Assembly (NCBI GenBank): GCA_030390025.1
Contig: CM059432.1
Coordinates: 66,714,001-66,778,000, forward strand
Direction: 5' to 3'
DNA: 64,000 nucleotides
From: Squalus acanthias
Taxonomy: Eukaryota
The notes beneath the pieces are model-generated. The model was not told the origin of the DNA. It saw only the letters and a list, made by a program, of their open reading frames with translations, and did not search any database. Shown here piece after piece: positions 45,664 through 47,483 of this stretch; position 1 is the stretch's first letter; each line of letters opens with the position of its first letter. The position numbers were made by a program, and so were the translations under genes.

Positions 45664-47483
45664 CTACTTTTTGCCCTTCGAGGGTGATCTCCTTCCCTTG
45701 CGCACTTCCCCCCTTCTAACCCTACTGCTCCTCCGTAATGGGACCTCAGTGGCTGCAGCAAGGCTGGTGGAAGGCTGCTGCTCGTCAGACCCTGACACTG
45801 CAAATGCCCCTGAAGGACGGCCTCGACCAGTTCTGGGCCTGGAGGGCCCGGCTGCAGACTGCACCAACTCTGCATGGGCGGCAGCAGTCTGTCCTACAGG
45901 CGGTGGCAAGTGCAGTGGAGAAGTGACAGTGTTGGCAGCAGGAATGCTGTCATCGTGAGATAGGACAGCAACTCCCTGCTCGCCCGACACACTGGCACTC
46001 CCACGGGGCAGCACTTCAGCATCCGGAACAATCTGCTGGAGCACAGATTGCTGGCCTGCTGCGGCGCGGTGAGAGCCCCGGGGACATGTGAACGAACCAT
46101 CGAGGTTGGCAGCAGTCAGTGCTCGCGTGGCCTCAATCTGAGTCTGCATGAGAGCAGTCAGAGATGGGATCACGGTAGTCAGTGACTGAATTGCAGCACT
46201 AAGCGTTAGTGTGGCATCCGCCTGTGCTACAGCGAAGTGCTCCACACTCCTTGCCAGTGACTCAATGCATTCGGGCACCCTTCCCACTGCACCCATGAGC
46301 TCAGTGTGCATGCCCACCGCCTGGGTGTTCATTTCTGCGATCAGCCGCTCCTCCTCTGCGTCCATTGCAGTAGGAGTCGCTGGCATACTCTCCCTCTGGG
46401 GAGAAGGCCCCCGTTCTTCCCTACCCCCATGGCGTTGCTGCAGCCCGCTGGGTCCTGGAGCTTCACCCTCATCAGACCCTTCCCCCCTGCTCCCCTCCAG
46501 GGAAGGCGTGTTCCCAGTGTGGGCATGGGCTTCCTCGGGAGAGGGTGGCACTGATGCTCCGGCTTCCTCTTCCTCCTCGGCTGCAGCTTCACTCCCACTG
46601 GCAGCTTCAGGGCCCATCTCCTCAGCTGGTGAATCACCATCTGAAAGCAGGGAGGTACAAGAGTGGCTTTAGCGTGAGGACAGGGTGGCAGTAAGGGAGG
46701 AATAAGTGCAGCGAGTTAGCAAGTTGGATTGAAAGTGTCAAAGGCTGGTGTTGTGAGGGACAAGTGGAAGGACGGAGGACAAAAAGGTGATGACCTTACC
46801 ATTGCTGTCCAGAACGGGGTCGGCGTCTCCAGTGGCGACGGGACCGATCACCCGGCTTGCCACAATCCTGTAGACGCGCTCCTCAAGATCGCTGAGGGGT
46901 TGCAGCTGAGGCCGCCCTCCACCTGTCCGTTGCTGCTGTCTCCTATTATGTGCCAGCTTGGCCTGCAAGTAAAAGGACAGCATCTGAGTAAATATACAGC
47001 CATGGTCTTGCCTGATGTGCCTCCCATAGGTGAATAGCCCTTACTGTATGCAGCCATGGTCTTGCCTGATGTGCCTCCCATAGGTGAATAGCCCTTACTG
47101 TATGCAAAGTGTGGAATGTGTGTGTGTGTTTCATGAAAGGGCCATAGGTGTTGGATGAGTGTTGTGCATTGGGGTTTTAAGACCCTCTGGCCATAGAGTG
47201 AGGTTGAGATGGAGGGATGGAGAGGTATTGAGAAAAAGCCACTCACCCTGACGACCCGAGTGAGGTCGTTGAACTTTTTGCGGCATTGAACATGGGTCCT
47301 GGGCACCATGCTCCTGGAGGAGACGCTCTGAGCCACCTCCCTCCACACTCTTCTGTACTCGCGTGGCAAAGGCCTCCTGCCACTCTCAGGGAAGAGTATA
47401 CATCTTCTGCGCTCCACCGCGCCAACCAGAGCATCCAAGGCCCGCTCGGTGAAGCGCTGAGCTCGTTCTCTCACCCTCTCCAT
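45664..47483 (-). CDS. Harbinger Myb/SANT protein, 3 exons (47483-47247, 46962-46800, 46640-45664), 458 aa
   Basis: Splice sites AGG|GTGAGT..TTGCAG|GCC and ATG|GTAAGG..TTTCAG|AT; the frame joins ORF 45664-46617 with no stop. Confidence 0.87.
46997..47104. repeat. Perfect 54-bp tandem duplication in Myb intron 1
   Basis: CAGCCATGGTCTTGCC..CTTACTGTATG occurs twice; copy 1 has it once. Confidence 0.95.

Follow-up and report, generated by a model that had tools for sequence, protein, structure and literature searches.

A candidate HMGN/Dsup-like chromatin tether in the C-terminal tail of a Myb-like helper protein from a shark Harbinger transposon

Harbinger transposons such as Harbinger3_DR and the Ping/Pong elements carry two genes, one for a transposase of the DDE_Tnp_4 type and one for a Myb-like helper protein with a Myb_DNA-bind_5 domain (open reading frame 1, ORF1), together with short terminal inverted repeats (TIRs) and a target-site duplication (TSD) that is 3 bp long. 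In these relatives, the Myb protein binds both the element ends and the transposase, which it carries into the nucleus (PMC2836001, PMC9179366), and neither a nucleosome-binding nor an AT-hook tail is described for it in the available parts of the literature searched. Here we report the analysis of an element of the same two-gene type in the shark Squalus acanthias, the Harbinger copy at positions 43678-47842 of a 64,000-nucleotide window (the whole stretch of DNA analyzed: assembly GCA_030390025.1, contig CM059432.1, positions 66,714,001 to 66,778,000, forward strand). Its Myb-like protein ends in a basic, predicted flexible tail that contains the tetrapeptide RGRP and, closer to the end, the pentapeptide RRSSR. 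An original prediction had read the two motifs as a conserved module, half AT-hook and half HMGN-like nucleosome anchor, that might tether the transposition complex to AT-rich nucleosomal DNA.

According to cryo-electron microscopy, the PPRRSSRLT segment of tardigrade Dsup and the RRSAR core of HMGN2 bind the nucleosome's acidic patch, with the arginine at position 5 as the anchor; in Dsup, the residues R1, R2, S3, and R5 contact the nucleosome, the serine by hydrogen bonding (PMC12487698). In the yeast protein Dot5, which reads RRSARIAT, all three arginines are required (PMC13347269). The shark helper resembles these proteins in having the R-R-S-x-R core in a region that is disordered by prediction; the core of the focal copy is identical to the modelled RRSSR of Dsup and keeps all contact residues, plus a hydrophobic valine at position 6. 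It differs from HMGN, Dsup, and Dot5 in that the motif stands at the C-terminus of a transposon protein, and in that the L-S/T-A/S continuation is absent from the shark-type copies: the focal copy continues with the valine and two arginines, and most of the copies, including the other families in the window, have K, Q, or T at position 6, an L-T continuation being found in the axolotl homolog P0084. Unlike HMGN, one shark-type family has glycine at position 3, and no HMGN domain was found beyond the core motif. No Pfam family matched exon 3, which encodes the tail, at E<=1, or the tail itself at E<=10; the last 60 residues matched no PDB chain at E<=10, and the tail had no usable match in the Atlas.

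The same nucleosomal surface is used by viruses: the acidic patch is where foamy virus Gag, and probably p12 of murine leukemia virus (MLV), fix the integration complex (PMC11054761). The likeness that we propose, namely an accessory protein of a mobile element that would keep an integration or maintenance complex on nucleosomes by means of an arginine anchor, extends to these two proteins and to LANA of Kaposi's sarcoma-associated herpesvirus (KSHV; PMC11381367), all of which are viral, whereas the motif considered here has an HMGN-type spelling and belongs to a DNA transposon of the cut-and-paste kind.

We tentatively propose, with a confidence that falls a little short of even, that the C-terminal tail of the Myb-like Harbinger helper is an HMGN/Dsup-like chromatin tether and probably a nuclear localization signal (NLS) as well. 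RRSxR would dock the flexible tail on the H2A-H2B acidic patch as an arginine anchor, and the docked tail would retain the complex of Myb protein and transposase on chromatin; nuclear import is probably a further role of this basic tail, and RGRP, in some lineages only, would add a weak contact with linker DNA. Such tethering would help the complex to find the element ends or to reach nucleosomal targets. The nucleosome-anchor half of this proposal is a plausible candidate on sequence grounds, because RRSSR equals the modelled segment of Dsup, the three arginines and the serine are kept, the tail is predicted to be disordered, and the motif is conserved between clades.

The Myb-like gene lies on the minus strand, tail to tail with the transposase gene, and encodes 458 amino acids in three exons separated by GT-AG introns. 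Exon 1 (47247..47483) encodes the Myb_DNA-bind_5 domain (E = 3.3e-10) and is followed by exon 2 (46800..46962) and exon 3 (45664..46640; 977 nucleotides including the stop codon at 45664-45666). The reading frame of the tail is supported by the GT-AG joint between exons 2 and 3 (46640/46800), which is present in three of three presumed-RNA sequencing runs, taken from two studies, and missing from the joints listed for the single DNA run compared; the RNA status of the runs is the tool's guess, the sides of the joint are 18-29 letters long, and the contigs give no expression level. The joint of intron 1 was not among the 15 splice joints listed (of 50). Within exon 3, a predicted helical region (46030..46368, residues 91-203 of P0001; mean predicted local distance difference test, pLDDT, of 50) may serve dimerization or contact with the transposase. 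Past residue 203, the protein is predicted, from a shallow alignment of 14, to be without secondary structure, its pLDDT being mostly below 50. In order of translation, this tail contains RGRP (45814..45825), an AT-hook-like core without downstream basic residues; an S/T-rich block directly before the RRS motif (45747..45780); RRSSRV, the HMGN/Dsup-like candidate acidic-patch motif (45718..45735); and a basic C-terminal end past the motif (45667..45717), which may form part of an NLS. The spacing from RGRP to RRS is 30 codons, and the motif is 23 residues from the end.

Nine such tails are present within the window. All the peptides quoted in the original prediction were found, namely GRGRPS..ATEVPLRRSSR in copies 1 and 2 of the focal family and the tails of families A, B, D, E, and H, and the two tails left out there are labelled C and I here. 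Copy 1 has RGRP at 11168-11157 and RRSSR at 11078-11064 on the minus strand, which also carries the tails of family A (RGRP ... RRSTQ, 7119..7223), family B (RGRP ... RRSTC, 14675..14779), family C (RGCP ... RRSTR, 29521..29625), and family D (RRSTR, 33117..33131, the RGRP region being absent). On the plus strand are the tails of family E (RGRL ... RRSTR, 34908..35012), family H (RRSIR, 54887..54901, with no RGRP upstream), and family I (RGRL ... RRNTW, 60215..60319). The observation behind the original prediction is confirmed in part: RRSxR is exact in six of the nine tails and RGRP in four. In family D (33050-33540, minus strand), the S/T-rich block and RRSTR follow in frame right after the helical region and the RGRP segment is gone, which is a deletion that spared the RRSTR motif. 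The departures at the fifth position (Q in A, C in B, W in I) are each one CpG-type transition away from an RRSxR codon, as are the RGRP variants (RGCP in C, RGRL in E and I) from a motif codon; changes not of the CpG type are S to N in I and T to I in H. Stop codons occur within the 150 codons upstream in A, C, H, and I, and none in B, D, and E. The window tails align as DNA and therefore represent two to three lineages, not independent cases. Copy 2 and H can be aligned at 68% over the final 440 nucleotides of exon 3, and the earlier description of the last exon as otherwise divergent holds only in part.

Selection on the motifs was assessed by comparing the focal copy with the A/B/C/E/I clade in five pooled, non-independent pairs, as the proportions of differences at silent sites (pS) and at amino acid-changing sites (pN). 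Between these clades, RRSxR has a pS of 0.81 and a pN of 0.23, and RGRP a pS of 0.93 and a pN of 0.08; the 12-codon spacer between them has a pS of 0.55 and a pN of 0.72, and other flanking blocks have a pN of 0.40-0.64. For scale, the transposase compared with C, E, and I gives a pS of 0.73-0.88 and a pN of 0.29-0.30, and the Myb domain compared with I a pN of 0.40. The motifs have changed almost exclusively at silent sites, which is the pattern of selection on the protein, and the signature is modest but consistent. The predicted excess of conservation over the flanks was borne out between the focal copy and this clade; within A, B, E, and I the motif does not stand out. The S/T-rich block (codons -14 to -6) is conserved at silent sites (13 of 15 codons identical, in non-independent pairs), with a pS of 0.18 versus about 0.8 in the motifs and the transposase. 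Other families that appear among the read contigs match the interval 45747-45780, with loose ends to its left and right. The interval, which includes the palindrome GCTGCAGC, is possibly an element that acts within the exon at the level of DNA or RNA. Translated by hand in the same frame, the loose-end consensus of run X1 before 45747 (63 records, agreement 0.66) yields L-R-R-S-T-R-L, spelled with different codons.

A profile of three window Myb domains recovered 206 proteins; the analysis covered the best 150 of these, the tail playing no part in their selection. Among these best 150, RRSxR occurs in the last 40 residues of 4 proteins (shuffle mean 1.0, p = 0.01); of 1210 internal windows, 3 contain it. 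RGRP is likewise found within the final 40 residues of 4 proteins (mean 0.5, p = 0.002). In the 85 of them that have at least 150 residues after the Myb domain, RRSxR is found 4 times (mean 0.79, p = 0.009), RRxxR 12 times (mean 6.0, p = 0.008), and K[KR]x[KR] 9 times (mean 3.7, p = 0.01); RRx[ST], a stand-alone kinase site, is not enriched among these 85 (8 versus a mean of 8.6). A degenerate pattern that matched 10 of the 150 was written after the tails had been viewed and is excluded from the evidence. In the clade of P0037, P0042, P0046, and P0063, which is possibly a domesticated gene, RKRGRPPK stands right after the Myb domain and not at the C-terminus.

Among the matches listed, the closest named homologs of the window Myb proteins are from sharks and rays. 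Shark-type tails read RRSTR (P0007), RRSSR (P0163), RRNCR (P0029), RRSCK (P0010), RHSNR (P0039), and CRSPR (P0016), and RGRP is absent from P0007, P0010, P0016, P0029, P0039, and P0048, as it is from H. P0163 belongs to a Heptranchias family, of which another member, P0160, is decayed. Four axolotl proteins (P0084, P0099, P0122, and P0147) have an S/T-rich run followed by P-x-RRS at 21-28 residues from the end; the full RRSxR is present in two of these four, and P0084 reads RRSSRLT, the exact Dsup 7-mer. No alignment was obtained between exon 3 and P0084 (best E = 0.09), and the choice between inheritance and convergence of the shark and axolotl motifs is not decided by the Myb-domain tree, which is a quick version (87 rows, 105 columns) with 34 of 84 inner branches open and from which 64 of 151 rows were dropped for having fewer than 150 residues after the Myb domain. 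A word-indexed protein search gave one match among 228 candidates with the Myb domain as the query and none among 8000 with exon 3. An 18-row alignment search gave 10 matches, mostly from one species, which were excluded from the enrichment counts because the query held tails; P0157 was kept in the tree only. A metagenome scan gave 295 pattern matches, none of them confirmed, and no matches with an upstream-flank pattern, by which tails would be sampled without selecting on the motif.

Other anchor spellings were noted in this set. P0047, from Pristis pectinata, ends in LRSGRS, as in KSHV LANA, which is within chance (1 of 85, p = 0.17); P0030 ends with LRPRS, alone also within chance, which resembles the LRPR pattern of the foamy virus Gag tether. 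RRSxR, LRSG, or LRPR end 6 of the 85 homologs versus 1.2 expected (p = 0.002), the last two patterns having been chosen post hoc. These counts are a hint towards a broader claim, that vertebrate Harbinger transposons carry their own nucleosome tether, in which the tail of the Myb helper would dock the transpososome on the acidic patch as foamy virus Gag and LANA do in viruses, and for which lineages such as sharks, axolotl, rays, and bony fish kept or re-invented HMGN/Dsup-, LANA-, or AT-hook-like spellings at one shared terminal position; this claim appears to us rather doubtful.

To model the peptide with H2A-H2B, as the original prediction had suggested, residues 285-324 of P0001 were combined with stand-in H2A and H2B from L001, a giant-virus-like contig; by eye, these histones keep the acidic-patch residues named in PMC12487698. 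The outcome is weak support, with a score of 0.49 versus 0.02 for the best of three controls, a partner pLDDT of 51-55, and at least 71% contact agreement between runs, the contacts themselves not being given. In the calibration of this score, 51 of 78 solved pairs came up to the mark, as did 2 of 108 mismatched ones, and scores of <=0.60 that passed the mark came from only 5 of the 78 solved pairs versus all 4 passing mismatches (of 180). Peptides are not covered by this calibration, none of the controls was an arginine-rich peptide, all being unrelated proteins, and the score may be memory, because acidic-patch peptide complexes have already been solved. The predicted complex moves the odds very little. 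As a separate observation, positions 1871-3071 of L001 (a 912-kb IMG/VR contig) hold separate, near-canonical H2A and H2B genes beside a packaging-ATPase-like ORF, labelled so by reading.

The AT-hook half of the module is weak. The tails resemble the HMGA AT-hook (PF02178) in the RGRP core, which is exact in the focal tail among others, and in the KPRGRPPK of the A/B/E/I clade and the Heptranchias family; they differ from HMGA in that the hook is single and below the cut-off, in that RGRP of the focal copy is followed by no basic residues, and in that sister families have no hook. The basic flanks that would bring the 17.4-bit cut-off within reach are missing: the Pfam AT_hook scores are 15.3 bits for A, 14.5 for B, 13.6 for P0014, 13.5 for P0157, and 9.9 for P0042, no match was found in the focal tail at E<=10, and 6 of the 11 scanned proteins were without any match. 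RGRP is also missing from the close relatives H, P0007, and P0010.

The premise that the TSDs consist of A and T only was borne out no more than partly: a duplication is shown only for copies 1 and 2 of one family, as ATT...ATT. The triplets AAT (27215-27217) and ATA (51630-51632), which had been counted as TSDs, stand beside single ends with no partner end found, and were rejected as demonstrated TSDs; the search for partner ends of the other elements in the window gave no convincing TIR pair with a TSD. The triplets TAT, TTT, CCT, CAT, TTC, and AGT flank other single TIR-like ends, not all of which need be genuine. The link drawn from the AT-hook to such TSDs is not supported. The two empty sites are 57% and 64% AT versus a window mean of 52%, and 24% of the window 53-mers reach 0.60. 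In this superfamily, TWA is the typical target (10.64898/2026.05.26.728016), and the palindromic target consensus of Harbinger3_DR has a CWG centre (PMC3016246). With TWA and CWG targets known and the empty sites unremarkable, the TSDs can be explained without an AT-hook, and its link to them should be dropped. In DDE transposases in general, the TSD is set by the staggered cut and the target read-out, and here too it is most likely these activities of the transposase, and not the tail, that determine the 3-bp TSD and the target sequence. PMC2836001 leaves open which protein sets the extended target preference of Harbinger.

These results bear directly on the possibility that RGRP is a working AT-hook which, together with RRSxR, directs insertion towards AT-rich DNA in nucleosomes and accounts for TSDs of A and T only. 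The retention of RGRP between clades despite silent change (pS 0.93), its excess in homolog ends, the 13.5-15.3 bits of the KPRGRPPK-type tails with their resemblance to the HMGA1 hook (PMC13582820), and the precedent of the GRRR AT-hook that Sleeping Beauty uses for substrate recognition (PMC7827188) would all be in its favor; we nevertheless hold it to be very improbable, since every AT_hook score is below 17.4 and the focal tail has none, since H, P0007, and P0010 lack RGRP and yet the one located end of H is also flanked by ATA, and since the only duplication shown is ATT, the other flanking triplets include C or G, the empty sites are not strikingly AT-rich, and both TWA and CWG centres are known. 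Another account takes the tail as a non-specific arginine-rich DNA-binding arm, whose motifs are accidents of lineage or ride on a DNA-level constraint. Homolog tails do show many arginine-rich spellings, and the block before RRS is conserved at silent sites and matched by other families in the reads; both motifs display the opposite, silent change with kept residues, and the run X1 consensus encodes its L-R-R-S-T-R-L by different codons, so that we regard this account as improbable, though less so than AT-targeting.

The remaining alternative is that the tail is a basic nuclear or nucleolar localization signal, possibly phospho-switched at R-R-x-S/T, which carries the transposase to the nucleus and makes no specific histone contact. 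ORF1/Myb proteins are nuclear, and that of Harbinger3_DR is needed for the nuclear entry of its transposase (PMC2836001, PMC9179366); basic tails are general among the homologs, with K[KR]x[KR] enriched; the K/R run past the motif has the lowest pN/pS within A/B/E/I (0.17); and the Heptranchias spelling RRG[ST]R keeps R-R-x-[ST] and loses the HMGN serine. Against this stand the lack of enrichment of RRx[ST] alone where RRSxR is enriched, and the consideration that a generic signal would not need the same R-R-S order in an S/T-rich, proline-led context in both sharks and axolotl. As a full explanation of the tail, a localization signal is a strong competitor, which we nonetheless think somewhat unlikely; the two roles are compatible, and a signal and a tether can coexist in the same tail.

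Several observations weigh against the chromatin tether that we propose. The strict motif is rare, RRSxR ending only 4 of the best 150 of the 206 homologs, and basic tails are common, at least six basic residues being present in the last 25 of 34 of the 85 long tails versus 84 of 843 internal 25-mers, so that a basic C-terminus is the general rule and only a minority of lineages carry the specific motif. Of the 40 homologs in the clade closest to the query, 2 have RRSxR, which is not significant (p = 0.09). Many homologs are automatic gene models in which the true last exon is possibly missing, and the motif counts may be too low for that reason. In the Heptranchias family, four of the six proteins with an alignable tail (P0014, P0157, P0158, and P0159) have RRG[ST]R, in which the serine is lost. 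Within the window, both motifs are exact in only two of the nine tails, those of copies 1 and 2 of one family; the anchor arginine is absent from three of the nine; and the motif of A, B, C, E, and I is followed by K/R-rich residues where HMGN, Dsup, and Dot5 have a hydrophobic one, which resembles an NLS. The between-clade test amounts to about one comparison of 4-5 codons across one deep split, with blocks picked after inspection, and within A, B, E, and I the motif has a pN/pS of 0.65 versus 0.17-0.75 in other blocks and is not conserved above its flanks. Structure prediction is weak here, because AlphaFold 3 is reported to misplace even HMGN2 (PMC12487698). Finally, nuclear import is already a known role of the Myb protein.

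In a self-comparison, the 64-kb window proved to be a nest of Harbinger DNA transposons interspersed with other repeats, and the focal element, copy 2, is an ordinary, intact Harbinger. Its left TIR (43678..43689, plus strand), preceded by the left TSD (ATT, 43675..43677), matches the right TIR (47831..47842, minus strand) at 11 of 12 positions, and the right TSD (ATT) follows at 47843..47845. The transposase gene (44191..45351, plus strand) is an open frame of 386 amino acids with a DDE_Tnp_4 match (E = 2.7e-39) and with all of the acidic residues D176, D226, D252, and E288 present. Subterminal GCGCC/GGCGC repeats on the left (43699..43930), with TAGCGCC at 43710 and 43748 and GGCGCTA at 43807, are candidate sites for the Myb domain. 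Copy 1 (9021..13132) belongs to the same family, is 97% identical to copy 2, and shares the 12-bp TIRs with one mismatch and the ATT duplication; its transposase (9535-10691) falls in two frames by tblastn, and exon 3 of its Myb gene is open. A tandem duplication of about 54 bp (47001-47107) lies in intron 1 of copy 2, and copy 1 lacks 54 bases there. In DNA contigs of run X1, the right element end (47842) is joined to the left end (43678) with 1 or 11 letters between; these joins are head-to-tail insertions, excised circles, or an assembly artefact. Elsewhere in the window, an insertion of about 800 bp (about 2874-3681), with a TIR-like right end and a left end that appears truncated, splits a repeat whose uninterrupted form is at 33622-34418, and two near-perfect short fold-backs occur at 22868-23373 (159-nucleotide arms, 96%), at the end of a Harbinger copy that begins at 20558, and at 25050-25305 (105-nucleotide arms, 89%).

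No HMGN-like or acidic-patch motif in any DNA-transposon protein was found in the open-access literature searched, although Repbase, subscription papers, and supplements may mention the tail, and a term search of PMC9392472 gave no AT-hook, NLS, or nucleosome. Since at issue is a motif of five residues for which HMGN and Dsup provide a solved structural model, the hypothesis is cheaply testable. If the tether reading fails, the tail is an ordinary basic import signal. If it is true, cut-and-paste transposons would have their first known acidic-patch anchor, and transposon vectors would gain a portable part; DNA transposons would join the mobile elements that use the acidic patch, and many members would be added to the HMGN-like motif class, which has been called untapped (PMC12487698). 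For the Harbinger superfamily, the question bears on why these elements need a second protein and on the way in which a transposase whose target preference is long deals with nucleosomes.

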